A stretch of 64,000 bases of DNA from Dehalococcoidia bacterium (GCA_034434815.1 DAOTYO010000005.1:13118-77117); one strand, 5' to 3'; numbered from the stretch's first letter, positions 6,667 to 62,580 are shown. Notes: generated from the letters alone by a model not told the origin. Made by a program: numbers and translations.

Positions 6667-6881
6667 AGCGATTGAAGAGGAGTGCGCAGAGATGACATCT
6701 CTCGGGGGGATTGGGGATGCTCTCCAAAAACACCCTGTGGGCGGGTAGGGGGAGCGGAGAAGCCTGAGGACATGGAAGATCCCGTGGCAAGGCCCGGAAT
6801 GAGATCATCATGGGCATTCCCCCTGAGGGTGAAGACTGCAAAGCGGAATCGCTGTTTTGGGGGCCACTCCAATCCTTGACA
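6667..6881 (+). repeat. copy A of novel ~215 bp interspersed element (AGCGATTGAAGAAG ... GGGGGTGTCCCCC ... CACCCTGAGGGTG ... GAATCGCT ... TTGACA)
   Basis: Direct sequence similarity to six other loci in this window; ends in a TTGACA -35 box 17 bp upstream of TAAAGT, 24 nt before the cobO ATG. Confidence 0.8.
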
Positions 6882-6928
6882 CCAAACATGGCCGATGATA
6901 AAGTAAGGCAGCGGCGGGCACAATCGGC

Positions 6929-7459
6929 ATGACGAAAGATCACGTGGGACTCGTCCAAGTCCTGACCGGCAATGGAAGAGGCAAAACTACCGCCGCTCTC
7001 GGGACCGTTCTCCGGGCTGTGGGACAGGGGCTTCATGTTCACATCATTCACTTCATGAAAGGCACATATCCTTACGGCGAGCAAAAGGCCCTCGCGCTCT
7101 TGCCCAATGTGACGGTATCGCGTTTTGGAAAACTGGATTTCGTCGACCCTCGTAACATCAAGGAAGAGGAACGCGAAGAGGCCCGCAAAGCCCTCGCGGC
7201 GAGCAAGGAAGCCATCCACAGCGGGGCCTACGATATGGTAGTGCTCGATGAAATCAACATTGCCTCCGCTTGGGGATTGATCCCGGTCGAAGAGGTGCTC
7301 GAGCTGATCAAAACAAAGCCGGAAGGGGTGGAACTCATTTTGACCGGCCGGTATGCCGATCGGAGGCTCATCGAGGCGGCCGATCTCGTCACCGAAATGG
7401 TCGAGATCAAACACCCTTACCAGAAAGGCATCAAGGCCCGCAAGGGATTCGAATACTGA
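6929..7459 (+). CDS. cobO: cob(I)yrinic acid a,c-diamide adenosyltransferase (ATP:corrinoid adenosyltransferase, CobO/BtuR family)
   Basis: P-loop GNGRGKTTAALG and the VLDEIN motif of the CobA/CobO/BtuR family; 176 aa. Confidence 0.85.
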   Translation: MTKDHVGLVQVLTGNGRGKTTAALGTVLRAVGQGLHVHIIHFMKGTYPYGEQKALALLPNVTVSRFGKLDFVDPRNIKEEEREEARKALAASKEAIHSGAYDMVVLDEINIASAWGLIPVEEVLELIKTKPEGVELILTGRYADRRLIEAADLVTEMVEIKHPYQKGIKARKGFEY

Positions 7460-7477
7460 TCCTCGGAGGGAAAGGAA

Positions 7478-8575
7478 TTGGGAATGATTACGCTGACCGT
7501 GATCAAGGCCGATATCGGCGGGTACGTCGGCCATTCTAGCATGCACCCGGAGATCATGGCTTACGGAAACGAACAACTCGAGAAAGCCAAGGGCCGGGGG
7601 CTTCTGATCGATTTCCATGTCACCCGATGTGGAGATGATCTTCAGCTCATCATGACCCACGATAAGGGCGAAGGCAACGATCGCATCCATCGGCTGGCGT
7701 GGGATACCTTCATGGGCTGCGCCGACTGCGCCCGCAAGCTCAAGCTCTACGGGGCGGGCCAAGACCTCCTGAGCGATGCCTTCTCGGGGACCGTTCGCGG
7801 CATGGGACCCGGTTCCGCGGAAATGGAGTTCGAGGAACGCGTCTCCGAGCCGGTGCTGATCTTCATGGCCGATAAGACCTCCTCCGGCGCATGGAACATG
7901 CCCCTCTACAAGATGTTCGCCGACCCCTTCAACACCATCGGGCTCGTCATCGCCGAGAACATGCACGAAGGTTTCACCTTCGAAGTCCATGATGTGAAGG
8001 GACACAAGAAAGTCACTTTCAATACCCCCGAAGAGATCTACGACATGTTGGTGCTGATCGGGGCGCCTTCGCACTACGCCGTCAAGGCCGTCCGGCACCG
8101 TCCTTCGGGAGAGATCGCGGCCGTTTCCTCCACCGATAAGCTCTTCGAGGTGGCCGGAAGATACGTGGGGAAGGACGACCCCGTGCTCATCGTCCGATGC
8201 CAAGGCAAATTCCCCGCCGTGGGAGAGGCCCTCGAGCCCTTCGCTTTTCCTCAGGCGGTGGAAGGGTGGATGCGCGGCTCCCACTTCGGCCCCTTGATGC
8301 CGGTCCCCCTTCGCCATGCCAATCCATCCCGCTTCGATGGTCCCCCGCGGGTGATATGCATGGGCTTTCAGATCTCCGGCGGCAAGCTCGTGGGCCCGGT
8401 GGATATGTTCGATGACCCGAGCTTCGATGAATCCCGAAGACGGGCCAACGAGGCGGCGGAATACTTCCGAAGGCATGGGCCTTTCGAGCCCCATCGGCTC
8501 CCTCTCGAAGAGATGGAATACACCACCATGCCACAGGTGATGAAGAAGCTTCAAGGGCGGTTCAGCCCCCTCTAG
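7478..8575 (+). CDS. fbp: fructose-1,6-bisphosphate aldolase/phosphatase (class V archaeal-type FBPase)
   Basis: 365 aa; N-terminus MITLTVIKADIGGYVGHS matches the conserved start of bifunctional FBP aldolase/phosphatase; the long antisense ORF 6641..8605 is rejected. Confidence 0.75.
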   Translation: MGMITLTVIKADIGGYVGHSSMHPEIMAYGNEQLEKAKGRGLLIDFHVTRCGDDLQLIMTHDKGEGNDRIHRLAWDTFMGCADCARKLKLYGAGQDLLSDAFSGTVRGMGPGSAEMEFEERVSEPVLIFMADKTSSGAWNMPLYKMFADPFNTIGLVIAENMHEGFTFEVHDVKGHKKVTFNTPEEIYDMLVLIGAPSHYAVKAVRHRPSGEIAAVSSTDKLFEVAGRYVGKDDPVLIVRCQGKFPAVGEALEPFAFPQAVEGWMRGSHFGPLMPVPLRHANPSRFDGPPRVICMGFQISGGKLVGPVDMFDDPSFDESRRRANEAAEYFRRHGPFEPHRLPLEEMEYTTMPQVMKKLQGRFSPL

Positions 8576-8605
8576 CGGCTTCTCCGGCGAAATACACGAT
8601 TCCAC

Positions 8606-8636
8606 AAAAGGGGCGATTTGCGGATCGCCCCTTTTG
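8606..8636 (+). terminator. rho-independent terminator hairpin after fbp
   Basis: AAAAGGGGCGATttgcggATCGCCCCTTTTGCT: 8-bp GC-rich stem followed by a T-run. Confidence 0.7.
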
Positions 8637-8667
8637 CTATGTATACTTAAAGTCAGAAGGACCCCGC

Positions 8668-9273
8668 ATGAAACTTCTGATCGCCACCAACAATAAGGGC
8701 AAAGCCCGGGAATTGAGCGCCCTTCTAGCCGCCCCCATATGGGAATGCACGACGCCGGCGGAGGAAGGCATCATCCTCGATCCCGAAGAGACGGGTAAGA
8801 CGTTCGAGGAAAACGCTGTCGCCAAGGCCAGAGCCTTCGCCAAAGCATCGGGGCTGATCACAGTTGCGGACGATTCCGGACTCGAAGTGGATGCCCTCAA
8901 CGGCGCCCCCGGCGTCTATTCCGCCCGTTATGCCGGACCCGAAGCGACCGATGCCCAGCGCAACGATTATCTTCTGGCCCGGCTCTCGGGAGTGCCATGG
9001 GAAAAGCGGCAGGCCCGTTTCCGATGCGTGATCGCCATCGCTTTCCCCGACGAGCGGCTCGTGCTTTGCAAAGGGGAATGCCCCGGTCTGATCGCCTTCG
9101 AGCCCAGAGGGGAAAACGGCTTCGGATATGACCCTATCTTCTATTTGCCCGAGCTCGGAAAGACAATGGCCGAACTCACCCCCGAAGAGAAAAGCCGGGT
9201 GAGCCACCGGGGCAAGGCGGCCCACAAAGCACGGGAGTTTTTGCAAAGCCTTTCGGAAGGGGTTAAGCCGTGA
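8668..9273 (+). CDS. rdgB: non-canonical purine NTP pyrophosphatase (RdgB/HAM1 family, dITP/XTP pyrophosphatase)
   Basis: ATNNKGKARE, DDSGLEVDALNGAPGVYSARYAG, FGYDPIF motifs. Confidence 0.85.
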   Translation: MKLLIATNNKGKARELSALLAAPIWECTTPAEEGIILDPEETGKTFEENAVAKARAFAKASGLITVADDSGLEVDALNGAPGVYSARYAGPEATDAQRNDYLLARLSGVPWEKRQARFRCVIAIAFPDERLVLCKGECPGLIAFEPRGENGFGYDPIFYLPELGKTMAELTPEEKSRVSHRGKAAHKAREFLQSLSEGVKP

Positions 9274-10253
9274 CGGGCATCGCCGATTCCTTCGATCGGC
9301 CGATCAACTATCTCCGCATCTCGGTCACCGACCGGTGTAACCTCCGATGCATCTACTGCATGCCGCCGGAAGGGATCGGTTGGCTTCCCCACGGCCATAT
9401 TCTCCGGTACGAAGAGATCCTCGTCATCGTCAAGGCCGCGGCGGAGCTCGGCATCACCAAGGTTCGGCTGACGGGCGGCGAGCCTTTGGTACGAGCCGAT
9501 CTCGGTAAGTTGGTGGGCATGATCGCACAGGTGAAGGGAATTGACGATATCTCTCTCACCACCAACGGAATGCTTCTGGCCCGATATGCCCGCGAGCTCA
9601 AGGAAGCCGGCCTTCGGCGGGTGAACGTGAGTCTGGATTCCCTCGATCCGGAGAACTTCCGCCGGATCACCCGCTATGGCGATCTCGGGGAAGTTCTGAA
9701 GGGTATGGAAGCCGCCCATGCAGCGGGGCTCGAACCTATCAAAATCAACATGGTGGCCATGCGATGGGTTAACGATCATGAGATCCTCGATTTCGCCCGC
9801 AAGACCCGTGATGAAGGATGGCATGTGCGCTTCATCGAGTTCATGCCCATGGGCGAACGACGCGATGAAGCCAGAGAGCGGTTCATCTCCATCGCCGAGA
9901 TCATGGAGCGGATAGAATCGCTGGGGAAGCTCGAGCCCCATCGGCTCGCGGGCAACGGACCCGCCAAATACTACCGTCTGCCCGGCGCCGGCGGCACCAT
10001 CGGTTTCATCGGACCGGTCAGCGAGCACTTTTGCTTTCAGTGCAATCGGCTGCGGCTCACAGCCGAGGGTAATCTGAGGCCCTGTTTGCTCTCGGACGAG
10101 GAAATCGACCTTCGAGAGCCCATCCGGCGAGGGGCATCGGCTGAAGAGATCAAACTTCTGATCGAGCGGGCGATCGCGGCCAAGCCGAAAGGCCATGGAC
10201 TCGCCATCGGGAAGACGCCGCACAACCGGAACATGTGTCAGATCGGGGGGTGA
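9270..10253 (+). CDS. moaA: GTP 3',8-cyclase MoaA (radical SAM)
   Basis: LRISVTDRCNLRCIYCMP radical-SAM CxxxCxxC cluster; C-terminal second cluster CFQCNRLRLTAEG. Confidence 0.9.
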   Translation: MTGIADSFDRPINYLRISVTDRCNLRCIYCMPPEGIGWLPHGHILRYEEILVIVKAAAELGITKVRLTGGEPLVRADLGKLVGMIAQVKGIDDISLTTNGMLLARYARELKEAGLRRVNVSLDSLDPENFRRITRYGDLGEVLKGMEAAHAAGLEPIKINMVAMRWVNDHEILDFARKTRDEGWHVRFIEFMPMGERRDEARERFISIAEIMERIESLGKLEPHRLAGNGPAKYYRLPGAGGTIGFIGPVSEHFCFQCNRLRLTAEGNLRPCLLSDEEIDLREPIRRGASAEEIKLLIERAIAAKPKGHGLAIGKTPHNRNMCQIGG

Positions 10254-10256
10254 GCG

Positions 10257-11192
10257 ATGATCGAGATCTATGCCGATGGCGCCTGTTCGGGAAATCCGGG
10301 ACCGGGCGGCTGGGGGGCAGTCATCATTCGAGGGGGAGGTAATCGGGAAGAGATCAAGGGCAGTGTGGAGAGCACCACCAACAACCGGATGGAGATGACG
10401 GCGGTGATCGAGGGGCTCAAGCGGACCGCCGAAGGCTCGGATGTGACCATCCGGAGCGATAGCCAGTATCTGATCTCCACCATGACCCGCGGGTGGAAAC
10501 GGAGCGCCAACCTCGATCTTTGGCACACCCTCGATGATCTCACCGCCAAGCGCAAGGTACACTGGGTCTGGGTGAAGGGGCACGATGGCCACCCCGAGAA
10601 CGAAAGGGCCCATCGGCTCGCCGTGGAGGCGGCCTCGGAAGTCACTCCCCAGCCCACCCATTTCGACACTTCCGGCAAGATACGCATGGTGGACGTCTCC
10701 GAGAAACCGATCACGGAACGGTCCGCCACCGCCAGAGGGTCGGTGAGGATGCAACCGGCAACCCTCGAACTCATCGAGAAGGGTGAAGCGGCCAAAGGGG
10801 ATGTGCTGGCCATCGCCCAGACGGCGGGCATCATGGCGGCCAAGAAAACCCCCGAACTGATCCCGCTGTGCCACCCCTTGCGTATCACCCATATTTCCGT
10901 GGGGTTCGCCCTTCACAAAGAGACCGGAACGATCGAGATCACGGCCACCGTCAAAGCCGATGAGAAGACCGGCGTGGAAATGGAGGCGCTCACCGCGGTG
11001 GCGGTGAGCGCCCTCACGATCTACGATATGTGCAAGGCCGTGGATCGGGGAATGCGGATCGAGAACATCCGGCTGATCCGCAAGAGCGGCGGCCGGAGCG
11101 GTACCATCGAGTTGGAGGATTTGCCGGAAGATGCCCCCGCCCCCTCAGAGGCAACCGGCGCCCGGAACCTCTCCGCTTCCCCGGAGGAATAG
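10257..11192 (+). CDS. moaC: fusion protein: N-terminal RNase HI domain + C-terminal cyclic pyranopterin monophosphate synthase MoaC
   Basis: Residues 1-130 carry the RNase HI DEDD-type motifs (YADGAC, NNRMEM, IRSDSQY, KGHDGHPENE). Residues ~150-305 are canonical MoaC (LIPLCHPL, TGVEMEALTAVAVSALTIYDMCKAVD). One continuous ORF after a GGGGGGTGAG RBS. Confidence 0.75.
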   Translation: MIEIYADGACSGNPGPGGWGAVIIRGGGNREEIKGSVESTTNNRMEMTAVIEGLKRTAEGSDVTIRSDSQYLISTMTRGWKRSANLDLWHTLDDLTAKRKVHWVWVKGHDGHPENERAHRLAVEAASEVTPQPTHFDTSGKIRMVDVSEKPITERSATARGSVRMQPATLELIEKGEAAKGDVLAIAQTAGIMAAKKTPELIPLCHPLRITHISVGFALHKETGTIEITATVKADEKTGVEMEALTAVAVSALTIYDMCKAVDRGMRIENIRLIRKSGGRSGTIELEDLPEDAPAPSEATGARNLSASPEE

Positions 11193-11286
11193 GGAACTCT
11201 CTTCACGGAAGAACCCCCTTTCCTCTCAACGGAAGAGAGCGCGGGTTATAAGGATAACAATCGTACACCGAAATGGAGGAAACCAA

Positions 11287-11598
11287 ATGAGCGCAGAGAT
11301 CGAATTGAACGAGGCCAATTTCGATGCGGAGACCGCCAAAGGCACCGTTCTCGTGGACTTCTGGGCGCCATGGTGCGGGCCCTGCCGGTCACAGGGGCCC
11401 ATCATCGAGAAGGTTGCCGAGAAAGCGGCCGGCAAGGCCAAGGTGGGAAAGTGCAACGTAGATGAAAACAAAAATGTGGCCAGCCGCTTCGGCATTCGCG
11501 CCATTCCTACGCTCATCATCTTTAAGGATGGCAAAGAGGTCGAGCGGATGATGGGATTGCAACAGGAAAGCACGTTGCTCAAGAAGCTCGGCGCGTAA
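11287..11598 (+). CDS. trxA: thioredoxin
   Basis: WAPWCGPCR active site; 103 aa; GGAGG RBS; the track ORF begins upstream at 11131. Confidence 0.85.
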   Translation: MSAEIELNEANFDAETAKGTVLVDFWAPWCGPCRSQGPIIEKVAEKAAGKAKVGKCNVDENKNVASRFGIRAIPTLIIFKDGKEVERMMGLQQESTLLKKLGA

Positions 11599-11682
11599 TG
11601 GCCGTCACCCATCCGGTCCATGCTTCCACCTTCTCTCAATCCTCCCACATTTTCCTTCTGGATTCCCAAAGGGACGAATGGA

Positions 11683-11899
11683 GAAAAGAGTGCACAAGAC
11701 ACCTCTCTCTCGGGGGATTGAGGGTGTCCCCCAAGAAAACCCTTTGGGCGGGTGGGTGGAATCGGAGAAGCCGGATCGCTCGTGGGGCGTGCGGGGGAAT
11801 TCCGGTACAAAGTCCGGATGAGGCGTCAACGGTTATTCACCCGAGGGTAAAGGCTGCAAAGCTGAATCGCTCTTTTTGGCGATTTCTTGTTCCTTGACA
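11683..11899 (+). repeat. copy B of interspersed element (5-prime end diverged)
   Basis: Shares the core CTCTCGGGGGATTGAGGGTGTCCCCCAAGAAAACCCTTTGGGCGGGTGGGTGG...GAATTCCGG...GCTGAATCGCT; ends in TTGACA 58 bp upstream of livG. Confidence 0.75.
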
Positions 11900-11956
11900 T
11901 GAGGGCCAAATTATGTTTGGATAAGTCCAACGTAATCGGTTGGGGGTTGCGGGTAC

Positions 11957-12724
11957 ATGGAGAAGCCTACGATTCTGAAAGTGGAGGATCTGTACCTCAC
12001 GTTCGGCGGAGTATCCGCTCTGGTCGGCGTCAGCTTCGAAGTCAAGGCGGGCGAGATCCTTTCGATCATCGGGCCCAACGGTGCGGGCAAGACTTCCGTC
12101 CTCAATTGTATCAATGGTTTCTACAAACCCGAGCGGGGTGAAATCACCTTCGAAGGCAAGCGAATCACGCGAATGCGTCCCGATAAGATCGCCCGGATGG
12201 GCATCAGCCGGACCTTCCAGAACATTCAGCTTTATACCGGCCTCAGCACCGTGGATAATTTGATGGCCGCCCGGCATTTTCACTTCAAGACAAACTTCCT
12301 CGAATCGGCGCTCTATTTCGGCAGAGGGCACCGGGAGGAAATCCGGCACCGCCGCATGGTCGAGGAAACCGTCGAGTTCCTCGAAATGCAGCCCTACCGC
12401 AATACTATCGTCGGCTCTCTCTCCTACGGCCTGCGCAAGCGGATAGACCTGGGCAGGGCGTTGGCTCAGGAACCCAAGCTCCTCCTCCTCGACGAACCGA
12501 TGGCCGGCATGACTCTGGAAGAAAAAGAGGATATGGCGCGCTTCATTCTCGATGTGCAAGAGGAAAGGCACATGGCCATCGTGCTCATCGAGCATGATAT
12601 GAGTGTGGTGATGGATATCACAGATCGAATCGTGGTGCTCGATTTCGGCCGAAAGATCGCCGAAGGCGTCCCCGCCGAGATCAAGCAAAACCCGCTGGTC
12701 ATCAAGGCCTATCTGGGCGAATAA
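11957..12724 (+). CDS. livG: ABC transporter ATP-binding protein, LivG-type (branched-chain amino acid)
   Basis: Walker A GPNGAGKTS, LSYGLRKRIDLGRAL signature region, LLLDEPMAGM Walker B; 255 aa. Confidence 0.8.
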   Translation: MEKPTILKVEDLYLTFGGVSALVGVSFEVKAGEILSIIGPNGAGKTSVLNCINGFYKPERGEITFEGKRITRMRPDKIARMGISRTFQNIQLYTGLSTVDNLMAARHFHFKTNFLESALYFGRGHREEIRHRRMVEETVEFLEMQPYRNTIVGSLSYGLRKRIDLGRALAQEPKLLLLDEPMAGMTLEEKEDMARFILDVQEERHMAIVLIEHDMSVVMDITDRIVVLDFGRKIAEGVPAEIKQNPLVIKAYLGE

Positions 12725-21764: not shown

Positions 21765-21883
21765 GGCGATCTTCCGGGTGCCTCCACACTCCGCCGAAGA
21801 ACCGTCAAAAGCCTTTCCCGATGGTCTCTCATAAGTATAATCCAAAGAGGGCGATTTTTACAAAAGGCCGCCGGGCCGTAAAG

Positions 21884-21977
21884 AGCGATTGAAGAAGAGA
21901 GTGCAAAAGACGCCTCTCTCGGGGTGTCCCCCAAGAAAATCCTTTGGACGGGTGGGTGGGAGCGAAGAAGCCGGGGG
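21884..21977 (+). repeat. copy C of interspersed element, 3-prime truncated (~95 bp), immediately upstream of tRNA-Thr
   Basis: AGCGATTGAAGAAGAGAGTGCAAAAGACGCCTCTCTCGGGGTGTCCCCCAAGAAAATCCTTTGGACGGGTGGGTGGGAGCGAAGAAGCC matches the 5-prime half of copies A, D, E and G. Confidence 0.75.
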
Positions 21978-22032: not shown

Positions 22033-22107
22033 GCCAACGTAGCTCAGTGGTAGAGCAGCGGTTTCGTAAACCGCCGGTCGTCGGTTCAAATCCGACCGTT
22101 GGCTCCA
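22033..22107 (+). tRNA. tRNA-Thr (anticodon CGU), CCA encoded
   Basis: Cloverleaf: acceptor GCCAACG/CGTTGGC, D-arm AGCTCAGTGGTAGAGC, anticodon loop TTCGTAA, T-arm GGTTCAAATCC, discriminator T + CCA; TATAAT at 22014-22019 just upstream. Confidence 0.8.
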
Positions 22108-26312: not shown

Positions 26313-26351
26313 CATTTCCCGTCGCGATACCCAACGCCGTGCGACCCTCTG

Positions 26352-26560
26352 AAGAAGGGCGATTCCGCTTTGGAGCCTTCACCCTCAGGGGGAATGGGCT
26401 TGATCACCTCACTGCGGACCTTGCCCCGGAATTCCCCCACACCCCATGAGCGATCCGGCTTCTCCGATCCCACCCACCCAAAAGGTTTTATGGGGGGACA
26501 CCCCCAACCCCCGGCTTAAGAGGCGCCTTGGCACGCGCTTCTTCAATCGCTGTTTTTGGG
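26352..26560 (-). repeat. copy D of interspersed element (full length, inverted orientation)
   Basis: Reverse complement reads CCCAAAAACAGCGATTGAAGAAGCGCGTGCCAAGGCGCCTCTTAAGCCGGGGGTTGGGGGTGTCCCCCC...GAATTCCGGGGCAAGG...CCCTGAGGGTGAAGGCTCCAAAGCGGAATCGCC. Confidence 0.8.
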
Positions 26561-26611
26561 TCTTCTGCATGAATCCCACGCCGGCGAACTTTGTGCTACA
26601 ATACACTCGTT

Positions 26612-28273
26612 ATGTCTGAGAGGATTCTCGTTGCCGTAGCTTGGCCTTACGCCAACGGCCCGCTGCATCTCGGGCACATCGCCGGAGCCTATCTCCCCGC
26701 CGATATCTTCGCCCGATATCACCGCCTCCGCGGAAACGAAGTCTTGATGGTCTCCGGATCCGATATGCACGGCACGCCCATCACCATCAGTGCCGAACGG
26801 GAAAAGACCACCCCGGAGGAAGTGGCCTTCCGCAACCATCGCGCCTTCATGGAAGCTTGGGGAAAGATGGGGATCTCCTTCGATCTCTACACCTCCACCC
26901 ATACCCCCAATCACACGGCGGTGGTGCACGATATCTTTCTGACGCTTCTCCGGAAAGGCTATCTCTACAAGGATTCCATGCCGAGCGCCTTCTGTCCTCA
27001 CTGCAACCGCTTTCTTCCCGATCGGTACACGGAAGGGGAATGCCCCCATTGCCATGCGCCGGCCGCACGGGGAGATCAGTGCGATGAATGCGGGAAAACA
27101 TTGAGCCCGGGAGAACTCATCAACTGGAGATGCGTTCTGTGCGGCGGCAAGCCCGAGATGCGGACAACCGAGCACTACTATTTGAAGCTCTCGGCCTTCA
27201 GCGATCGGCTCGAAGCATGGGCCAGAGCTCAGACCCACTGGAAGCCCAACGTCTCGAGCTTCACCATGCGGTACATCAAGGAGGGCCTCCGCGATCGGGC
27301 CATCACCCGGGACCTCGAATGGGGCATCCCCGTGCCCGCGGAAGGGTTCGAAAGCAAACGCATTTACGTTTGGTTCGAAGCGGTGATCGGGTATCTTTCA
27401 GCCACAAAGGAATGGGCCGAGAGGAAAGGCGATCCTGAAGCATGGCGCCCCTTCTGGCGGCCGGATGCACGATCGTATTATTTCATCGGTAAGGATAACA
27501 TCCCGTTCCATACGCTCATCTGGCCGGCCATTCTGATGGGGTATGATCCGAACCTGCGCCTCCCCTATGATGTGCCCGCCAACGAGCACTTGACCCTCGA
27601 AGGCAAGCAATTCTCCAAGAGCCGCCGCTGGGCCGTATGGCTGCCCGATTATCTTGAGCGATACGATCCCGACCCCCTGCGGTACGTGCTCTCCGTGAAC
27701 ATGCCGGAGACGGGAGATACCGATTTCTCGTGGAGGGAGTTCGTCCGGCGCAACAACGATGAGCTCGTGGCGACCTATGGGAATCTCGTGAACCGCGTTC
27801 TCAAACTCACCCACCGCAACTTCGGAGGGGGGGTCCCGCCGCTCGGCGAACCGGATTCACGGGATCAAGCGCTCCTTTCCATGGCTAGAGAAACGCTCCA
27901 GCGCGTCGGCGAATCGCTGGAGATCTGCCGGTTCAAGGAGGGCATCAAATCCGCCTTTTCCCTGGCACAGGAGGCCAACCGATACCTCGATGACAAGGCC
28001 CCGTGGAAGCGGATCAAGGAAGATCGAGAAGGGGCCGCTACGTCACTGGGAGTGGCCATGGGAGTACTGGCCTGTTTGAAAACGGCGCTCTATCCCTTCT
28101 TGCCCTTCAGCTCGGAGAAATTGCACCGAATGCTGGGCTTTCCCGGAACGGTTCAGGGGGGCGGCTGGGATTTCCCCTTCCCTCTCACGGGACAGAAGCT
28201 TTCCCCTCCGGAACCGCTCTTTGTCAAGCTCGAAGAGGATATCATCGCCGCGGAAACCGCCAAACTCGGGTGA
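26612..28273 (+). CDS. metG: methionine--tRNA ligase
   Basis: HIGH motif (PYANGPLHLGHIAG), zinc knuckles CPHCN...CPHCH...CDECG...CVLCG, KMSKS-type FSKSRRW; start trimmed to MSERILV. Confidence 0.9.
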   Translation: MSERILVAVAWPYANGPLHLGHIAGAYLPADIFARYHRLRGNEVLMVSGSDMHGTPITISAEREKTTPEEVAFRNHRAFMEAWGKMGISFDLYTSTHTPNHTAVVHDIFLTLLRKGYLYKDSMPSAFCPHCNRFLPDRYTEGECPHCHAPAARGDQCDECGKTLSPGELINWRCVLCGGKPEMRTTEHYYLKLSAFSDRLEAWARAQTHWKPNVSSFTMRYIKEGLRDRAITRDLEWGIPVPAEGFESKRIYVWFEAVIGYLSATKEWAERKGDPEAWRPFWRPDARSYYFIGKDNIPFHTLIWPAILMGYDPNLRLPYDVPANEHLTLEGKQFSKSRRWAVWLPDYLERYDPDPLRYVLSVNMPETGDTDFSWREFVRRNNDELVATYGNLVNRVLKLTHRNFGGGVPPLGEPDSRDQALLSMARETLQRVGESLEICRFKEGIKSAFSLAQEANRYLDDKAPWKRIKEDREGAATSLGVAMGVLACLKTALYPFLPFSSEKLHRMLGFPGTVQGGGWDFPFPLTGQKLSPPEPLFVKLEEDIIAAETAKLG

Positions 28274-38949: not shown

Positions 38950-38985
38950 CCGGATCGCCCCCCTTCTCATTTCCTACCCAAAAAC

Positions 38986-39184
38986 AGCGATTGAAGAAGC
39001 ACGTGCCAAGACGCCTCTTAAGCCGGGGGATTGGGGGTGTCCCCCAGAAAACCCTTTGGGCGGGGTGGGGGGATCGGAGAAGCCCGATCGCACATGGGGT
39101 GAGGGGGGAATTCCGGGGCAAGGTTCACGGCGATGCGATCAAAGTCATTCACCCTGAGGGTGAAGGCTCGAAAGCGGAATCGCT
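38986..39184 (+). repeat. copy E of interspersed element (full length)
   Basis: AGCGATTGAAGAAGCACGTGCCAAGACGCCTCTTAAGCCGGGGGATTGGGGGTGTCCCCCAGAAAACCCTTTGGGCGGGG...GAATTCCGGGGCAAGG...CACCCTGAGGGTGAAGGCTCGAAAGCGGAATCGCT; followed by hairpin CCGGAAAGcCTTTCCGG and an extended -10 TGATATACT before aroQ. Confidence 0.8.
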
Positions 39185-39258
39185 GCTTTCGGACCCGGAA
39201 AGCCTTTCCGGAGTTTCCCTTTCTTGTGATATACTAAAGCAGCAAACCGAGGGCAGCG

Positions 39259-52556: not shown

Positions 52557-52559
52557 CCC

Positions 52560-52649: not shown

Positions 52650-52651
52650 GG

Positions 52652-55098: not shown

Positions 55099-57234
55099 CT
55101 AGGTCCCCTCGGCCTTCGCGCCCTTCTCCATCGCCTGAAGGAGGGCCATCATCTCGGCGGGGTCGGTGGTGGGCGAGCGGCATTGATAGCCGGTACACAC
55201 ATAAGCCGTCGCCTTTCCCCGAAGGGGCGTGCAACCGCCGGCAAAGGGGACTAAACCATCGATCTCGGGCGGCTCCTTTCCCGTGGGCCTCAACAGCACC
55301 ACGAGATTAGGAGTGAACCTATTCCAAAGGGTACGGAGCATGGAACGGGTATCCTCCGCTTCCGGATCGCCCGCGATGACCACTTCATGGGCCGGCCCCG
55401 CCGCAAAGTCCACTCCGCACATCAGAAAGGTATATGCGGCCGGGGATCGGCTCACCTCACCGGAGAATACCTTCATGATCCATGCCGCCTTCTTCTCCAT
55501 TTCCGGGTCGGCGGTCAAGCGCCCGATACGGAGCAAATTCAACACGGCCACAGAATTGGCCGATGGCACTGCGCCATCGTAGATATCCTTGCCGCGGAAG
55601 AGAATCTCTTCCCCATCATCCGGGGTCGCATAGAACCCCCCGCGAGCGGCATCCCAGAAGTGGGCGATGAACTGCCCGTTCAGCTCGATGGCCGCTCGAA
55701 GGTATCGGACTTCGAAAGTGGCTTCATACAGCTCGAGGAGACCCCACACCAGAAACGCATAATCATCCGCCGAGCCCATAATCGCCGCCTCGCCCTCCCG
55801 ATAGCGATGGAGCAATCGCCCATCGGCGGTCCTTAGAGCACCCAGAAGAAAATCCGCAGCGCCCTTGGCCGCCTCGGCATATTCCCGCTCGCCGAAGACC
55901 TGAGCGCCCTTGGCCAGGGCCGCGATCATGAGTCCGTTCCAATCCGTCAGGAGTTTGTCATCCCTCGGGGGATGGGGCCGCTTCGAGCGGTATTCAAAGA
56001 GCCTTTCCCGGATCCTCCCCATCCGCTGTTGGAGTTGCGGTTCGCCGATGCCCGTCCGCCGGGAGATTTCACCCATGGAGGCCTTCTGATGGAGAATATT
56101 CCGTCTCCCCGGAAGCCCGCCGGATTCTTCCCGGTAGTTTCCTTCTCTGGATACGTTGAAAACGGTCACCGCAAGGTCGGCATCCTCCGGACTCAGAGCC
56201 GACCGGATTTCCTCTTCGGTCCAGAGGTAAAATCTTCCCTCTCCGCCTTCGCTATCGGCATCCTCTGCAGAGAAGAACCCACCCTCGGGGGCGGTCATAT
56301 CGAGCAAGACGTAGGTGAAGATCTCCCGTGCCGTCCTCTCATATTCGGCCTTTCCGGTCGCCCGAAAGGCCTCGATGTAGGCCATCGCCGCAAGGGCCTG
56401 ATCGTACAGCATCTTCTCGAAATGGGGCACCAACCACTGCCGATCGGTCGAATACCGATGAAATCCGAAGCCAACGTGATCCCAGATACCCCCCTTCCGC
56501 ATGCGATCGAGGGTCTTCTCGACCATCTCGATCGCAAGGCTATCGGCGGTGCGCTTCCAATACCGGAGCAAGAAAAACAAATGGTGGGGCATCGGGAATT
56601 TGGGGGCATCGCCGAAACCGCCGTACTCCCGATCGAATCGTGCCGCGAGTTGCTCGAACGCGAGTTTCAGCACCGACGGTCCGAGCTCTTCCCCCGCCAC
56701 CGGCTGCGAGAAGTGTGCCACCGCCGCGGCGATCTCATCCGCCGATTTCAGCACTTCTCCCTCTCTTCGTGACCAGATCTCCTTGAGACGCGGCACAAGA
56801 TCGAGCATCCCGATGCGCCCGAAGCGGGTTTCCCGGGGAATGTACGTGGCGGCGAAGAAGGGCTTTTTATCGGGGGTCATAACGATGGTAAGGGGCCAGC
56901 CCCCGCTGCCGGTCATGAGCTGGCAAACGGTCATGTAAACGGCGTCAATATCGGGGCGCTCCTCGCGGTCCACTTTGATGGAGATGAAGGCATCGTTCAT
57001 GAGCCGTGCCACTTCCTCATCTTCAAACGATTCGTGTGCCATCACATGGCACCAGTGGCATGTCGAATAGCCGATGGAAAGGAAGACCGGCTTGTGCTCG
57101 GTGCGGGCTTTGGCGAAGGCCTCCTCTCCCCACGGGTACCAATCCACGGGATTGCCCGCGTGCTGAAGAAGATAGGGGCTCTTCTCCAATGCCAACCGGT
57201 TCTGAAACTTACCCATGTCTTCTCTGCTCGTCAT
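55099..57234 (-). CDS. thioredoxin-domain protein YyaL family (DUF255 thioredoxin-like + six-hairpin glycosidase-like domain)
   Basis: [29 protein letters not shown]...STCHWCHVM is the characteristic YyaL N-terminus; about 710 aa. Confidence 0.8.
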
Positions 57235-57306
57235 CCATCGCATCCTTGGCCCCGTTTGCCGCCGAGAAGCGGGAGGCCCGCTTCTCGGCGGCAAATAAAG
57301 GGTCCC

Positions 57307-57744
57307 CTAGACCGACTTGTAGATTCCCCTTTTGATCTCGTCCAAACGGGTCAGAAGATCGGAGTGTTTCTGTTCATCCTGCAGAAGATATTGCAAGAGA
57401 TAATTCTGCAGGATCATCCCCTGCTGCCCGCGGGTACAATCGAGCATCTTCTGCGCCAAATCAATGGTCTGCTGCTCGATCTTGAGGTGCTGCTCGATCA
57501 TCCCCCAGATCCGGGTAAGATCGTCCGGGGTGAGGGTGAGCGCCTTGTGCGCGATGCTGTGGGCGATGAACTCCTGAACCCGGTAGTGGATCAGCGAATC
57601 GCGCTGGATGATCTCCGCCACCAATCGAATGAGCGGGTTCTCCGTCTTTTCCATGATCTGCGCGGTCGAGGCCACCGCGGCATTCTCCACCTTCTGCCAG
57701 TGCTTCATGGTGGTCACGATATCTTGCTGTAGTTCCTTGGTCAT
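57307..57744 (-). CDS. hypothetical all-helical protein (possible four-helix-bundle metal-binding, ferritin/hemerythrin-like)
   Basis: 145 aa, several His/Glu in helical heptads (HYRVQEFIAHSIAH); GGAGG RBS; preceded by repeat copy F. Confidence 0.45.
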   Translation of the reverse strand: MTKELQQDIVTTMKHWQKVENAAVASTAQIMEKTENPLIRLVAEIIQRDSLIHYRVQEFIAHSIAHKALTLTPDDLTRIWGMIEQHLKIEQQTIDLAQKMLDCTRGQQGMILQNYLLQYLLQDEQKHSDLLTRLDEIKRGIYKSV

Positions 57745-57807
57745 ACATACCTCCTTGAGAATCTCTCCGGATTTTCGGCATCCCTATCCCATTTCCGTCA
57801 AAACCCG

Positions 57808-57927
57808 AAAAGAGCGATCCCGCTTTGGGGCCTTCACCTCAGAGCGAGTGCCTGTGATCACCTCACTCCGGACCTTACCCCCCAATCCCCCCGTGGCGGT
57901 GTCTCGGCACACGATTTCTCGATCGCC
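57808..57927 (-). repeat. copy F of interspersed element (internal ~80 bp deletion, inverted orientation)
   Basis: Reverse complement reads GGCGATCGAGAAATCGTGTGCCGAGACACCGCCACGGGGGGATTGGGGGG / TAAGGTCCGGAGTGAGGTGATCA...CTCTGAGGTGAAGGCCCCAAAGCGGGATCGCT, then TTTTGACG. Confidence 0.7.
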
Positions 57928-57947
57928 GTTCCGGGGTCAAAACACAA

Positions 57948-58637
57948 TCACTTCTTCTTGAGCACGGCCCCGAGGACCTTCTCTTTCTCGATCTTCTTCG
58001 TGCAGAAGAACCAATCATGGCAAGTCACGTCCGGTTGCTTGACCTCCATCCGCTCCTTTGCCACCCCACATGAACCGGGCGGGGGAACGATGACGGGATC
58101 GCCCGGGCGCCAATCCGCCGGGAGAGCGACCGAAAACGCATCGGCCACCTGAAGGGCCACAACGATCCGGTACAGCTCCTCGAAGTTCCGGCCCAGGCTG
58201 AGCGGATAGTAGATGATCACCCGGATAATGCCTTTGGGATCGATGACGAAGACGGCGCGGACGGCCTTGGTCGAACTTTCGCCCGGTTGGATCATGCCGT
58301 ACTTTTTGGCCACTTCCATGGTGATGTCTTCGATCAGGGGAAACTTCACTTCCACATTTTTCATCCCGCGGTATTCGATCTTATCCTTGATCGTCCGCAG
58401 CCATGCGATATGGCTGTAGAGCCCATCCACAGAGAGCCCGACGAGCTTGCAATTGACCTCGGCGAACTTATCCTCCATGGAGGCAAACGTCATGAATTCC
58501 GAAGTGCAAACCGGGGTGAAATCGGCCGGATGACTGAACAGGATCACCCAACTTCCGGCGTACTGATCCGGGAAGGTGATCTCCCCTTGAGTGGTCATCG
58601 CCTTGAATGCGGGAGCCCTATCCCCGATGCGTGGCAT
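57948..58637 (-). CDS. peroxiredoxin (1-Cys Prx / Prx6-like, AhpC/TSA family)
   Basis: Start MPRIGDRAPAFKAMTTQGEI; peroxidatic Cys motif FTPVCTSE. Confidence 0.85.
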   Translation of the reverse strand: MPRIGDRAPAFKAMTTQGEITFPDQYAGSWVILFSHPADFTPVCTSEFMTFASMEDKFAEVNCKLVGLSVDGLYSHIAWLRTIKDKIEYRGMKNVEVKFPLIEDITMEVAKKYGMIQPGESSTKAVRAVFVIDPKGIIRVIIYYPLSLGRNFEELYRIVVALQVADAFSVALPADWRPGDPVIVPPPGSCGVAKERMEVKQPDVTCHDWFFCTKKIEKEKVLGAVLKKK

Positions 58638-58681
58638 CGAGACACTTGCGGGTTGGTTCGTAGCTTCCAAGAGATCCCTCC

Positions 58682-58840
58682 TTAAAGTTTTTTGAATTCG
58701 TCTTTGCCCGCTCCGCACACCGGGCATGTCCAGTTATCCGGCAGCTTTTCAAAGGGTGTCCCCGGGGGAATATTTCCCTCCGGATCTCCTTGCGCCGGAT
58801 CGTAGACATAGCCGCAGACCGAGCATTCGTATTTATCCAT
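58682..58840 (-). CDS. rubredoxin (canonical, 52 aa)
   Basis: Not in the ORF track (<60 aa). [52 protein letters not shown]; AAAGGAG RBS. Confidence 0.8.
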
Positions 58841-58888
58841 CCCTAACCGCTCCTTTCAGAAGATTTTTTCCTCCAATACTAACGGGGC

Positions 58889-59071
58889 TCAAGTTCGCGG
58901 ATCCTCACGGGAACGGGAAGCGGTGTTCCCGCTCGTACACCGAAGACAAACCCATCCGGCGGGAAGATCCGCAAGCGGCGTCCCCGCCGGGATCCGATTC
59001 TCCGGATCACCTTTCCTCGGATCGTACCGATAACCGCAGATCGCATAGTCTTTCTGGCACCTCAATGTCAT
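58889..59071 (-). CDS. rubredoxin-like protein with a degenerate first Cys knuckle
   Basis: MTLRCQKDYAICGYRYDPRKGDPENRIPAGTPLADLPAGWVCLRC...: first canonical Cys replaced by Tyr, an extra Cys 7 residues upstream, and the CPxCG Gly lost; GGGGGGAGG RBS. Confidence 0.55.
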   Translation of the reverse strand: MTLRCQKDYAICGYRYDPRKGDPENRIPAGTPLADLPAGWVCLRCTSGNTASRSREDPRT

Positions 59072-59087
59072 TCACGAGCCTCCCCCC

Positions 59088-59264
59088 TCAAGTCATGCAC
59101 TTGGGCTCATCCCGGCGGAACTGTGTCGGCTTGGCGCCGCACTGGGGACATCGCCACTCAGCGGGCAAGTCCTCGAAAGCCGTCTCCGGGGGAACCTTGC
59201 CCTTCTTATCCCCCAACTTAGGATCGTACACATAGCCGCACGCATTGCACTTGAACTTCTGCAT
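59088..59264 (-). CDS. rubredoxin
   Basis: MQKFKCNACGYVYDPKLGDKKGKVPPETAFEDLPAEWRCPQCGAKPTQF; GGAGGAGG RBS; the track ORF begins upstream at 59303. Confidence 0.8.
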   Translation of the reverse strand: MQKFKCNACGYVYDPKLGDKKGKVPPETAFEDLPAEWRCPQCGAKPTQFRRDEPKCMT

Positions 59265-59319
59265 GACGAATCCTCCTCCGGAAGAATATCCCGCTCTGCC
59301 CACGGGGGCTTCGGCGACC

Positions 59320-59829
59320 TCACTTGGAAGCTACATAAGACGGCGCCGTCTTCGGGGTTGTGCCGCGCTTCACTTGCTGATAGTACGCATACGTCATCGG
59401 CTCGCCCTCCTTGAGGACGGCCGCATCGGTGATTTCCCCCACGAAGATCGTGTGCGTGTGAACATCGCAACGGGAAATGACCTTCGCCTCGAGATACGCT
59501 ACGGCGTTATCCGTAACGATGGGGCTGCCGGTGTTCCCGATCCGATAGGTCACGCCCTCGAGTTTATTCCCGTCTCTACCGGACTTGAACCCGAACCGTC
59601 CGATGAAGCTCAGGGGGGTATCTATGGCGATAACCGCAGCCGAAAACGCTCCGCTCTTCTCGATATACTCATGGGTGAGGTTCCCCTTGTTGATACACAC
59701 GGAGATGGTGGGCGGCTCGGAGCACACCTGAACCACGGTATTGGCGATCTGTGCGTTCAGTTTCCCGGCATGGGCCGCGCCGATCACGTACAGTCCATAG
59801 CTTATCCGGTGCAAGGCTTTGGTATCCAT
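59320..59829 (-). CDS. flavin reductase-like domain protein (candidate NAD(P)H:rubredoxin-side reductase)
   Basis: 169 aa flavin reductase-like FMN-binding split barrel; first gene of the rubredoxin operon. Confidence 0.7.
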   Translation of the reverse strand: MDTKALHRISYGLYVIGAAHAGKLNAQIANTVVQVCSEPPTISVCINKGNLTHEYIEKSGAFSAAVIAIDTPLSFIGRFGFKSGRDGNKLEGVTYRIGNTGSPIVTDNAVAYLEAKVISRCDVHTHTIFVGEITDAAVLKEGEPMTYAYYQQVKRGTTPKTAPSYVASK

Positions 59830-59953
59830 GATGCCCCCTTTCCTTACCGCCGCTGACTCTGGCCTTCAGTGTAATCGAAGGTGCGGCGGACGAATGTGAC
59901 CTTTGTCGCATCGCCGCCCTCTCCCCGGAAGCCCTCCGCCCGCTCGGGCCTTG

Positions 59954-60481
59954 CTAGTTCGGGAACCGGAGGGCATCGATGATCGCTTTGTTGAACCTCG
60001 GGAGATCCGCCGGCTTTCGCGAGGTGATCAGATTGCCGTCTCTCACTACCGGCTCGTCCAACCACTGGGCCCCGGCATTGCGCAAATCCACGGCGATCGA
60101 AGGCCATGAGGTGACCTTCCGACCCCGGACCACATCGGCGGAGATGAGAAGCTGTGGCCCATGGCAAATGGCCGCCACGATCTTCCCCTGATCATGAAGT
60201 TTCTTCACCAGAGCGATCATCGATGGATACAGCCGCATCCGATCCGGCGCGTAGCCGCCCGGAACGATCACGGCATCGAAATCCTCCGGATTGATCTCAT
60301 CGGCGGGGGCATCCACAGCGATGCGGGCCTGCCCCCTCTTCCCCGTGTAGATCTCCTGCGAACCGCTGCCCACAATCACCGCCTTGGCTCCCGCATCCTT
60401 CATCGCCCTCAGGGGCTCGACCAATTCCGAATCCTCGAACCCCTCCTCGGCAAGGATCGCTATCCGTTTCCCCTCGATCAT
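59954..60481 (-). CDS. DJ-1/PfpI family protein
   Basis: Catalytic triad context AICHGPQLL (nucleophile elbow Cys), 175 aa. Confidence 0.85.
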   Translation of the reverse strand: MIEGKRIAILAEEGFEDSELVEPLRAMKDAGAKAVIVGSGSQEIYTGKRGQARIAVDAPADEINPEDFDAVIVPGGYAPDRMRLYPSMIALVKKLHDQGKIVAAICHGPQLLISADVVRGRKVTSWPSIAVDLRNAGAQWLDEPVVRDGNLITSRKPADLPRFNKAIIDALRFPN

Positions 60482-60622
60482 CGAACCGCCTCCCCATGGC
60501 TCATTCGGCCTTCCGTCCCCATATTTAAAGCTATCAGGCGGCCGATGAAGAAGTCATAAAATCGCCGGCGGAAACGTTGAAGTTTCGTAACACCGGCCGA
60601 AGGGAAGGCCGGAATCATCCGC

Positions 60623-61321
60623 TCACTCAGCGGGCCAATCGAGAATGTAACCCGTCTTGGGAACGGTTCGGATGAGAGACGGGGCATCGGGATCCTTCTC
60701 GAGTTTGCTTCTCAGCCGGCTCATCCACGTCCGGAGAATTTGCACATCGTCCCGATATTCGGGGCCCCATACACGGCTGAGGAGATCGCTGTGGAGCATC
60801 AATCGCCCGGCATTTCTGGCAAGCTCCGCAAGGAGCAACCATTCGATCCGGGTGAGCTTCTTCTCCTCACCCCCAACGAAGACCATCCGCCGTTCGAAGT
60901 CAATGACCACATCCCCGAACTTGAGCCGAGTGGCAACCTTCGGCTGGGGAAAAGCTTGAGCCCGCCGCTTCACCGCTTCGATTCTCGCCAGAAGCTCGCT
61001 CGGATTGAAGGGCTTGGAGATATAATCATCGGCGCCGAGGTTCAGGCCCTTGATCTTGTCGGTATCGTTCCCCTTGGCGCTGAGGATGATCACCGGCACG
61101 GCAGAAAAGGTGCGAATCTCCTTGAGGGTCTCGATCCCATCCAACCGGGGCATGAGCACATCGAGAAGGACCAAATTCGGATCCTCCGAACGGATCTTCT
61201 CCATCGCTTCCATCCCATCTCGGGCCATGAGCACCTCATACCCCGACGCGGAGAGTTTGGACTTGAGGAACGTGCGGATGCGCTCCTCATCATCAACAAT
61301 CAGTATACGAAAGTTCTTCAT
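60623..61321 (-). CDS. OmpR/PhoB-type response regulator
   Basis: Receiver domain (ILIVDDEERIR...LLDVLMPRLDG...ILSAKG) plus winged-helix trans_reg_C domain (LTRIEWLLLAELARNAGRLMLHSDLLSRVWG); no cognate kinase adjacent. Confidence 0.85.
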   Translation of the reverse strand: MKNFRILIVDDEERIRTFLKSKLSASGYEVLMARDGMEAMEKIRSEDPNLVLLDVLMPRLDGIETLKEIRTFSAVPVIILSAKGNDTDKIKGLNLGADDYISKPFNPSELLARIEAVKRRAQAFPQPKVATRLKFGDVVIDFERRMVFVGGEEKKLTRIEWLLLAELARNAGRLMLHSDLLSRVWGPEYRDDVQILRTWMSRLRSKLEKDPDAPSLIRTVPKTGYILDWPAE

Positions 61322-61374
61322 GAGATTTGGAAGGCCCCGGTATGCCTCTATCTTAATCGCTGATTCACGTTACG

Positions 61375-62223
61375 TCAAAGGGGATCGGAGCGGGGGAAAC
61401 TCGCCGGCCCGTACCGCTCACAGAACGCCTTCGTCACTTCCCAGAGGTCGGGCGGGAGCATTCTCCGGACCGTGGAACGGATCTCCTCGGGCACTCCCCC
61501 GTAGAAAGCCTCCGCCACACCGCCGGTGATACAGGCCAGCGTATCGCTATCCCCTCCGAGCGAGACGGCATTTCGAACCGCATCCTCGTAGGAATCGGAA
61601 CTCAGGAAAGCGATGAGCGCCTCCGGCACCGTCCCCGGGCAGGAAACATCGAACGAATAGGAGGGCCGGATCTCATCCAGACTGCGGTGGAGATCATATC
61701 CGAACAGAGCCTCGATGCGGGCTTTGATCGAGGGCTTATCGTATCCCTTCTTGGCCAGAAATACCGCCATCGCCGTCGCTTGCGCCCCCTTGATGCCCTC
61801 GGGATGATCGTGGGTGATCTCCGCCGTCAAGCGGGCCTCCCGGAGCACTTCATCCTCTGCTTCGAAGGCCCAACCAACGGGGCTCACCCGCATGGCCGAC
61901 CCATTGCCCCAACTATGGTAAGGACGCGGAACCTCCGAGAGAAGCCACCGTCTGAAGAAGCCCCCGTATCCGGCATCCGGATACCGCCTCCCGAAGCGGC
62001 GGACGGCCTCCCGATACGGCTCACCGGAAAGAACGGCATGGGCAATGGCCACCGTGAGCACCGTATCATCCGTGAAACGGCACCGCGGCGAAAAAAGGGG
62101 GAAATCCTTCGTCTTGATGGGATGGGATTCGTACACCGAACCGATGATATCCCCCGCAATGGCCCCGATCATGGAGACCGCCTCCGATAAGCTCGATGGC
62201 TCGAATGCGAACTTTGTTCGCAT
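61375..62223 (-). CDS. ADP-ribosylglycohydrolase family protein
   Basis: GAIAGDIIGS N-terminal motif and C-terminal GGDSDTLACITGG typical of the ARH/DraG fold; start uncertain (62223 or 62172). Confidence 0.7.
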   Translation of the reverse strand: MRTKFAFEPSSLSEAVSMIGAIAGDIIGSVYESHPIKTKDFPLFSPRCRFTDDTVLTVAIAHAVLSGEPYREAVRRFGRRYPDAGYGGFFRRWLLSEVPRPYHSWGNGSAMRVSPVGWAFEAEDEVLREARLTAEITHDHPEGIKGAQATAMAVFLAKKGYDKPSIKARIEALFGYDLHRSLDEIRPSYSFDVSCPGTVPEALIAFLSSDSYEDAVRNAVSLGGDSDTLACITGGVAEAFYGGVPEEIRSTVRRMLPPDLWEVTKAFCERYGPASFPRSDPL

Positions 62224-62353
62224 TATAGGGCGGGGAGCCTCAGGGGTCAACCGATTTCTCCGTGCCGAAAACCAACCGCCGGAGCCCCCAAGGCCTTCCT
62301 ACGAACCGCCGCGAACTTCCGAGACACGCCTTTGCGATTTCCCAACCCAGAAC

Positions 62354-62580
62354 GGCGATCGAAGAAGCCCATGCCCGGACGCCTCTTTAGCCGGGGGTTT
62401 GGGGGTGCCCCCCAAGAAACCCTTTGGGCGGGCGGGTGGGATCGAAGAAGCCGGATCGTTCATGGGGTGCGGGAAAATCCCGGCGCAAGGTCCGGAACGA
62501 GGCGATCACGCTCACTCACCCTGAGAGCGAAGGCTCCAAAAGCTGAATTCGCCTTTTTGGGGTCTTAACCGGCCCTTGAC
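62354..62580 (+). repeat. copy G of interspersed element (full length) ending in a TTGACT -35 box
   Basis: GGCGATCGAAGAAGCCCATGCCCGGACGCCTCTTTAGCCGGGGGTTTGGGGGTGCCCCCCAAGAAACCCTTTGGGCGGGCGGGTGGGATCGAAGAAGCC...GCAAGGTCCGG...CACCCTGAGAGCGAAGGCTCCAAAAGCTGAATTCGCC...CCCTTGACT. Confidence 0.8.

Follow-up and report, generated by a model that had tools for sequence, protein, structure and literature searches.

A 64,000-nt stretch from a Dehalococcoidia bacterium (GCA_034434815.1, DAOTYO010000005.1:13118-77117), referred to here in its full length as the window, carries seven copies of a ~205-bp interspersed repeat. Our analysis supports the classification of this repeat as a new family of non-autonomous DNA transposon, or MITE (a miniature transposable element with inverted repeats). 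It is small and non-coding, ends in inverted repeats, is flanked by target-site duplications, occurs as dispersed copies, and is missing from equivalent sites in relatives. As MITEs are common, a new family would alone be ordinary; what is unusual is a near-constant spacing of 13-14 bp between the element and the -35 box of an apparently pre-existing promoter. The best explanation, which we consider quite probable, is that the MITE is moved in trans and that its register with promoters results from a choice of target that reads the -35 region.

Identification of the repeat family

The original prediction, made from the sequence of the window, had named seven loci of a shared repeat. Alignment reveals clear homology across all of them, and a search of the entire window with a profile of the full-length copies (nhmmer) returns exactly these seven copies and no eighth, with E-values of 3.6e-66 to 8.8e-16. 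Four copies had been counted as full length and three as truncated or deleted; incomplete copies do exist, but five (A, B, D, E and G) are essentially complete. Pairwise identity among these five is 64-81%, somewhat lower than the 75-90% first estimated.

The search was extended to 35 metagenome loci, in which nhmmer recovered 53 copies. Window and metagenome copies together comprise 41 distinct full-length sequences, at least 36 of them from outside the window. Copies measure 188-216 bp, about 80% of them are still full length, and mean identity across 40 copies is 76% pairwise and 86% to the consensus. The window holds seven copies in 64 kb and the related loci 17 non-ascertained extra matches in 289 kb, for an overall density of about one copy per 9-17 kb. 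Extrapolation from this density suggests on the order of 100-200 copies if the genome is ~1.8 Mb. Rates of change differ strongly along the element, with 16 invariant alignment columns compared with 0.5 expected and a very conserved central block, GGGATCGGAGAAGCCGGATCG.

Most copies also contain a canonical G-quadruplex motif, GGGCGGGTGGGTGGG, made up of four G3 tracts with 1-nt loops (window positions 6730-6760, 11740-11760 and 39050-39070, and equivalents in other copies). About one quarter of copies have lost one G-tract through a 4-nt deletion, and the motif is therefore not strictly conserved.

Structure of the element

The true ends of the element became visible with 41 copies. They are inverted repeats of ~15 bp, with CCC[N]AAAA[G/C]AGCGATT at the 5' end and AATCGCT[C/G]TTTT[N]GGG at the 3' end. 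The pairing of termini proposed earlier (AGCGATT with AATCGCT) is real and represents the inner part of this longer repeat, which reaches CCCAAAA/TTTTGGG; 78% of terminal stem cells are paired across 40 copies. In an anchored profile of 80 unique ends, the information content of the flank falls to zero directly after the GGG terminus.

Inspection of the flanks showed that target-site duplications are present and significantly enriched over mismatched-flank controls. Matched flanks have a word of at least 5 nt in common in 18 of 41 copies, compared with 4.5 (maximum 10) in mismatched 5'/3' pairs; the corresponding values are 12 of 41 against 1.2 for words of at least 6 nt and 7 of 41 against 0.25 for words of at least 7 nt. 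Examples found directly outside the termini are CAAGA, ACGGC, CGTTT, ATGAG, TCTCA and TCGGT. The best model is a duplication of 5 bp, since longer matches between flanks are explained by overlap with the G/C-rich termini. A duplication of 9-11 bp of the form GGG-N-CCC, resembling the target preference of IS231, was rejected because clean cases such as CAAGA/CCC...GGGG/CAAGA place the CCC and GGG in the element itself. The element is non-coding: only 11 of 146 indels are multiples of three, and stops occur in most frames of the consensus. No sigma-70-like promoter was found within the consensus.

These features bear on whether the repeat is instead a palindromic unit of the repetitive extragenic palindrome (REP) or bacterial interspersed mosaic element (BIME) type, or a bidirectional terminator or insulator, spread without classical transposition. 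Such an identity would be in keeping with the paired termini, which are followed by a T-run on both strands, with the frequent location of copies between a gene end and the next promoter, and with a GGGGG-TGT-CCCCC hairpin module found in common with the shorter repeat of a relative. It is nevertheless very improbable, given a length of ~205 bp compared with 20-40 nt for REPs, clear 5-bp flanking duplications, and stem halves that lie ~190 nt apart, unlike those of an intrinsic terminator. Moreover, the element ends are not consistently flagged by a terminator scanner, and copies are also found between divergent promoters, where no terminator is needed (copy A; locus L009). REP and BIME units are imperfect palindromes that lack flanking duplications and go together with RAYT transposases. 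The earlier statement that the repeat is not a REP/BIME-like short palindrome agrees with its unit length and target-site duplications.

Among known miniature elements, Tn3-derived inverted-repeat miniature elements (TIMEs) are non-autonomous and generate a 5-bp duplication, and the ends of the Tn3 family are ~38 bp long and start with GGGG. A TIME is not supported as the identity of the repeat: the length of the duplication fits, but the ends here are ~15 bp and start with CCC(C)AAAA.

One metagenome locus shows an unusual arrangement at L030:490-560. The 3' terminal repeat of the copy at L030:326-525 is directly followed by an inverted partial duplicate, with which it makes up a perfect hairpin of 18 bp, CTGAACCGCTCCTTCGGG-ATACGCC-CCCGAAGGAGCGGTTCAG. 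Such an arrangement could be what is left of a nested or adjacent insertion, or else a solo end.

Promoters at the element ends

The flanks hold predicted promoters of the form TTGACA-N17-TATAAT that face outward and begin just past the element ends. Outward promoters with a score of at least 10 occur at 34 of 89 unique ends, compared with two that face inward and an expectation of 1.5 from shuffled sequences. Distances were measured from an anchor in the inverted repeat, GCGATT/AATCGC. The -35 box starts 23-24 nt from this anchor, or 13-14 nt past the terminus, in 22 of the 32 ends that bear a promoter (range 20-26 nt from the anchor). The register does not depend on a promoter model: of 80 ends, 24 have a TTG that starts 23 or 24 nt from the anchor, compared with ~1.5 at each other offset. 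An in-register promoter adjoins ~40% of ends and is present in 22 of the 32 copies with both ends evaluable (~69%). The promoter lies at the 5' end in 17 copies, at the 3' end in 10, and at both ends in two.

The resulting geometry is a GGG terminus, the 5-bp duplication, 8-9 nt and then the -35 box, and the insertion point consequently lies at approximately -49 to -45. The A/T tract of the terminal repeat is located at approximately -53 to -57 in every in-register copy. Judged from their surroundings, the promoters look functional, with a ribosome-binding site and ATG, or tRNA genes, within 20-70 nt. When 60 kb of the window was analyzed with an independent scanner, three of the eight best promoter-like sites lay 14 nt from element ends (to the left of copy A, with a 12/12 match; to the right of copy A; and beside copy G), and a fourth adjoins copy C. 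Other than the -35 register, no conserved motif was detected in the flanks of 80 unique ends. Promoters adjoin three of six retained ends of truncated copies, which is about the base rate and does not discriminate between targeting and selection.

A conserved TTGAAG is located 13 nt inside the 5' terminus of all copies (for example, window positions 38990-38995), mirroring the TTGACA that stands 13-14 nt beyond the termini. The likeness could be due to chance, or one DNA-binding domain may read both the element end and the target.

Comparisons with relatives at two sites address the age of the promoters. Four relatives with CobO identities of 84-87% (L045, from GCA_041300025.1, L049, L050 and L051) have kept the cobO promoter and leader, and all four lack the element at this site; similarity between the window and these relatives ends ~13 nt upstream of the -35 box, at the 3' end of copy A. 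Likewise, L052, L053 and L054 (89-97% LivG identity, with 97% in L052) retain the livG promoter and leader and lack the element. When copy B and one copy of its duplication are taken out, the window aligns across the junction, and L052 has a single GATT. An element-like similarity in the intergenic region of L052 was also considered and is unsupported by nhmmer. As both promoters are kept in element-free relatives and homology breaks at the element end, the promoters pre-date the insertions. On these alignments, the element arrived upstream of existing promoters after its lineage split from those relatives.

Targeting or retention

We propose that the element would be transposed in trans by a cognate transposase, with a transposition machinery that would pick its target by reading the -35 region of a sigma-70 promoter. 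The reading could be either direct, as the DNA sequence TTGAC, or through promoter-bound RNA polymerase. A staggered cut would then be made, for either orientation of the element, 8-9 bp upstream of the -35 hexamer, at approximately -49 to -45. Where TTGAC occurs by chance within a gene, insertions would be eliminated, leaving the promoter-associated copies. The inverted repeat and its A/T tract would come to lie at approximately -50 to -65, from where they could also modulate the promoter. Target selection via the -35 box is the simplest account of the register because the peak is confined to +/-1 nt, is independent of orientation, and is accompanied by no other conserved motif in the flanks. 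The more specific claim, that the element or its transposase recognises the -35 region (TTGAC itself or promoter-bound RNA polymerase/sigma) and inserts at a ruler offset of 8-9 bp upstream, is offered tentatively, as a possibility. The internal TTGAAG 13 nt from the 5' terminus fits this claim.

The main rival, which is not mutually exclusive with targeting and which we find rather doubtful, is that the repeat is a domesticated upstream promoter module. Transposition would be roughly random; copies that enhance, regulate or insulate the adjacent promoter would be kept and neutral ones deleted. Centred at approximately -57 to -61, the repeat would lie where a class I activator site or the distal UP-element subsite is found. 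Such retention could have produced an old family, with 86% identity to the consensus, in which ~80% of copies are nevertheless full length, as well as its 16 invariant columns and conserved central block, the constant position of the A/T tract in in-register copies, and the fixation of all copies in the population. It would, however, require very efficient loss of other insertions to yield a +/-1 nt peak in 69% of copies. In addition, the native cobO and livG promoters of relatives apparently work without such a module, and ~30% of copies have survived with no promoter in register.

The absence of an in-register promoter from ~30% of copies also weighs against the explanation proposed here, as do several other points. 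The promoters are predicted from sequence and conservation. Both empty sites come from relatives in which the upstream intergenic DNA is poorly alignable, and the junctions are approximate, within 2 nt. Because the family is old, the register could reflect the survival of beneficial insertions rather than targeting, and the 16 invariant columns show some constraint beyond pure neutral decay. All data derive from one uncultured population, and no presence/absence polymorphism was seen between metagenomes: every shared site is filled and 100% identical, so there is no evidence of recent mobility. Finally, a search of ~425 kb for inverted-repeat matches outside the known copies, solo or distant, did not find an autonomous element or transposase with matching ends, which would be expected to read CCCAAAAGAGCGATT...AATCGCTCTTTTGGG.

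Comparison with known systems

A limited literature search found no description of fixed 13-14-bp spacing to promoters for any bacterial transposon. Bacterial MITEs such as Correia/NEMIS of Neisseria, MITEAba12, ERIC, RUP and Nezha are likewise small, non-coding, intergenic and multi-copy, with terminal inverted repeats and target-site duplications, and often lie close to gene starts (PMC10969869). They affect expression via promoters or integration host factor (IHF) sites carried inside, and promoter targeting at a fixed distance does not feature in the review that describes them (PMC10969869). Correia and similar elements have internal promoter hexamers or IHF sites and a TA duplication, whereas the present element has no internal promoter and a 5-bp duplication, and a complete host promoter lies outside it at a fixed distance of 13-14 bp.

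A similar behaviour is reported for the ISAba32/ISAjo2 group of the IS1202 family, which inserts at a fixed 5-bp offset from the XerC side of dif/pdif with 5-6-bp duplications (PMC10132070). This group is a precedent for ruler-like targeting beside a nucleoprotein site. It differs in that its members are autonomous 1.5-kb insertion sequences with a single orientation and a Xer recombination site as target, and it is likened here by behaviour, not sequence. IS1397 and ISPpu9, which target REPs, class C group II introns, which follow terminators, and Tn7 at glmS likewise obtain safe intergenic sites from a recurrent signal (in part PMC1525189 and PMC12288879). Elements that target REPs, terminators or attTn7 differ from the one described here, for which the recurrent signal appears to be the sigma-70 -35 region; the MITE review (PMC10969869) and the limited literature search gave no account of such a signal for a bacterial element. 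In eukaryotes, Ty3 and Ty1 of yeast and Tf1 of Schizosaccharomyces pombe read the promoter-bound transcription machinery and so integrate upstream of transcription units at a constant position. These are retroelements with other enzymology, and the analogy is one of logic only.

Tests for RNA structure

Two candidate readings of the repeat had been offered, a MITE-like mobile element and a family of structured cis-regulatory or small RNAs. The former is supported by the ~15-bp inverted repeats, the 5-bp duplications and the empty sites in relatives, whereas the latter is not. The description of the repeat as highly structured was not borne out, as single-copy folds have z-scores of only -1.1 (+ strand) and -2.0 (- strand) against dinucleotide shuffles. 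In the 40-copy alignment, covariation on the consensus structure scores 0.111, compared with 0.107 in shuffles. Paired cells amount to 82.6% in both the alignment and its shuffles, 232 of 500 of which are at least as high, and the RNAalifold structure collapses to an energy of -2.5 kcal/mol, without a covariation term. Pairs with the highest mutual information are not of the Watson-Crick type; they are linked variants that mark subfamilies, as is expected for transposon lineages.

We consider very improbable a structured RNA family, in which a riboswitch-like leader, a small RNA or a transposon-guide-like RNA would be transcribed from each copy. The consensus alone does fold to -100.8 kcal/mol with a 17-bp terminal stem, local hairpins are present, and six of the seven window copies are co-oriented with the downstream gene. 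Set against this are covariation and pairing at the level of shuffles, mutual-information signals that trace subfamilies rather than base pairs, and the position of the promoters. These lie outside the duplications and read outward, so the element is not a 5' leader; the consensus has none inside it; and as a promoter is possible at either end, there is no strand logic. An Rfam scan at gathering thresholds found the tRNA alone and nothing on the repeats, and at E<=10 the repeats gave no match other than noise. A cobalamin riboswitch was also considered for copy A, which lies upstream of cobO, and rejected, given that it has no Rfam match and that the cobO promoter is downstream of the element.

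Host and distribution

To determine the distribution of the element, we used a degenerate pattern of two blocks, which fits each of the five full window copies. Across one genome each of 185,579 species it gave a single chance match, in a Fimbriiglobus coding region, and viral contigs, plasmids and phages gave no match to the element. Together with the Rfam result, this bears out the claim of novelty as far as it is testable. The pattern did identify 35 loci in four Joint Genome Institute (JGI) metagenomes, and exact-protein look-ups placed the window's own sequence in the same metagenomes. Overlapping loci from different metagenomes are 100% identical. These two observations imply that all copies come from one population, and homologues of CobO and LivG assign it to an uncultured member of the Dehalococcoidia (Chloroflexota). 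The element is thus shown to have expanded in a single uncultured lineage of this class.

A self-BLAST search for other multi-copy DNA returned a CRISPR array and paralogous genes and nothing else. The array belongs to the same organism and has ~48 units (L027:3143-6575; the same array is present at L009:1-325), with a 36-nt repeat, GTTGCCGACGTTGGAACTGACCTGATCGATGGACAC, and spacers of ~35 nt. It is located ~300 bp from a MITE copy that has a divergent promoter on either side, and one of these two promoters drives a tRNA gene.

The relative GCA_041300025.1, which has no element at the two sites examined, possesses its own shorter interspersed repeat (L045:2556-2660 and L045:13114-13191). This repeat and the MITE have a 24-nt module in common, CCGGGGG(T/A)TTGGGGGTGTCCCCCA, which in the relative is followed by a second hairpin, CCCCC-ATGATT-GGGGG. 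The MITE may have captured this module, or the module may predate it.

Four short-read (Logan) contigs, L039, L040, L043 and L044, begin at position 1 inside copies E and A, so that assembly in this lineage is broken up by the repeat.

Copies in the window and their neighbours

All seven window copies are intergenic, as predicted, according to Pfam analysis of the flanking open reading frames (ORFs). The coordinates given here are refined and include the termini. An in-register promoter adjoins copies A, B, C, D, E and G, and copy F is the sole one without.

Copy A (6659-6861, + strand) is full length apart from a 13-nt internal deletion, and its 5' inverted repeat is degenerate, reading TCTATAAC instead of CCCAAAAC. 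It lies between a periplasmic-binding-protein gene and cobO, which are divergently transcribed, and is flanked by two divergent promoters, with 14 nt to each -35 box. One of these, TTGACA-17-TATAAT (12/12; 6616-6644, - strand), reads outward from the 5' end toward the periplasmic-binding-protein gene. The other, the cobO promoter TTGACA-17-TAAAGT (6876-6904, + strand), begins 14 nt past the 3' end. Only the window lineage has the binding-protein gene and cobO in this divergent layout (comparison of window 5259-7459 to L045:7558-10531 and to L050), and other genes stand upstream of cobO in relatives L045 and L050. Copy A has no recognisable duplication in addition to its degenerate 5' end. These features and the lineage-specific gene layout are compatible with a rearrangement through the element.

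Copy B (11665-11879, + strand) is full length, with a thioredoxin gene on one side and a livG-like ABC ATPase gene on the other. A near-perfect 5-bp duplication borders it, GGATT at 11660-11664 and CGATT at 11880-11884, and the -35 box of the livG-like gene promoter, TTGACA (11894-11899, + strand), lies 14 nt past its 3' end. Copy C (21876-21974, + strand) consists of the 5' half only, the 3' half being missing, and has a tRNA-Thr(CGU) gene downstream (22033-22107). A promoter of the form TTGTAA-18-TATACT (21834-21863, - strand) reads outward from its 5' end, at 12 nt from the terminus.

Copy D (26345-26560, - strand) is full length, with a small insertion in its 3' inverted repeat, and is positioned between marR and metG; no recognisable target-site duplication was found for it. 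Past its 5' end is the putative metG promoter (26573-26602, + strand), which we read from the sequence as a weak -35 box, ATCCCA, and an extended -10 box, TGcTACAAT (26597-26602). The mechanical ORF start of metG (TTG at 26591) overlaps this promoter (window 26591-26614). The start of metG is likely the ATG at 26612, ~9 nt after the -10 box TACAAT, which implies an mRNA that is leaderless or has a very short leader. The gene to the left of copy C (ATG at ~21828, - strand) seems to be arranged alike.

Copy E (38977-39192, + strand), also full length, lies between an MMPL transporter gene and aroQ. The aroQ promoter (39206-39235, + strand) follows its 3' end in register, 13 nt from the terminus, with a -35-like TTCCGG and an extended -10 box, TGaTATACT (39230-39235). 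Copy F (57804-57936, - strand), located after a peroxiredoxin gene, has an internal deletion of ~85 bp and retains both inverted repeats intact; it is bordered by a perfect TTTTGA duplication (57937-57942 and 57798-57803). Copy G (62346-62561, + strand) is full length and lies between an ADP-ribosylglycohydrolase gene and a secreted-protein gene. The promoter 14 nt past its 3' end, TTGACT-18-TATATT (62576-62605, + strand), drives the gene of a signal-peptide protein that starts at 62674. That gene (62674-64000), whose product begins MKKGLVRLSMQALLGMGLAVLLLVPTQALA..., is missing from the ORF list and probably runs off the end of the window.

Implications

The significance of the family depends on the origin of the spacing. 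If it results from target choice, it would represent a new way for a bacterial transposon to reach landing sites that are safe and potentially influential, and would suggest that the transposase has a promoter reader built in; such an enzyme could be useful as a programmable insertion tool. If the -35 region is indeed what is recognised, the system would be a bacterial counterpart of promoter-tethered integration that follows a Ty3-like logic. An identical cassette of ~200 bp would then stand at approximately -50 in possibly a hundred promoters and could rewire their regulation. If selection is instead responsible, ~100 promoters of a streamlined genome would have a common mobile upstream module, and the family would provide a bacterial example of regulatory rewiring through transposon-borne cis elements. 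A practical effect is that the element breaks short-read assemblies of these genomes. Either way, it offers a concrete and testable system in a poorly studied, uncultured lineage.

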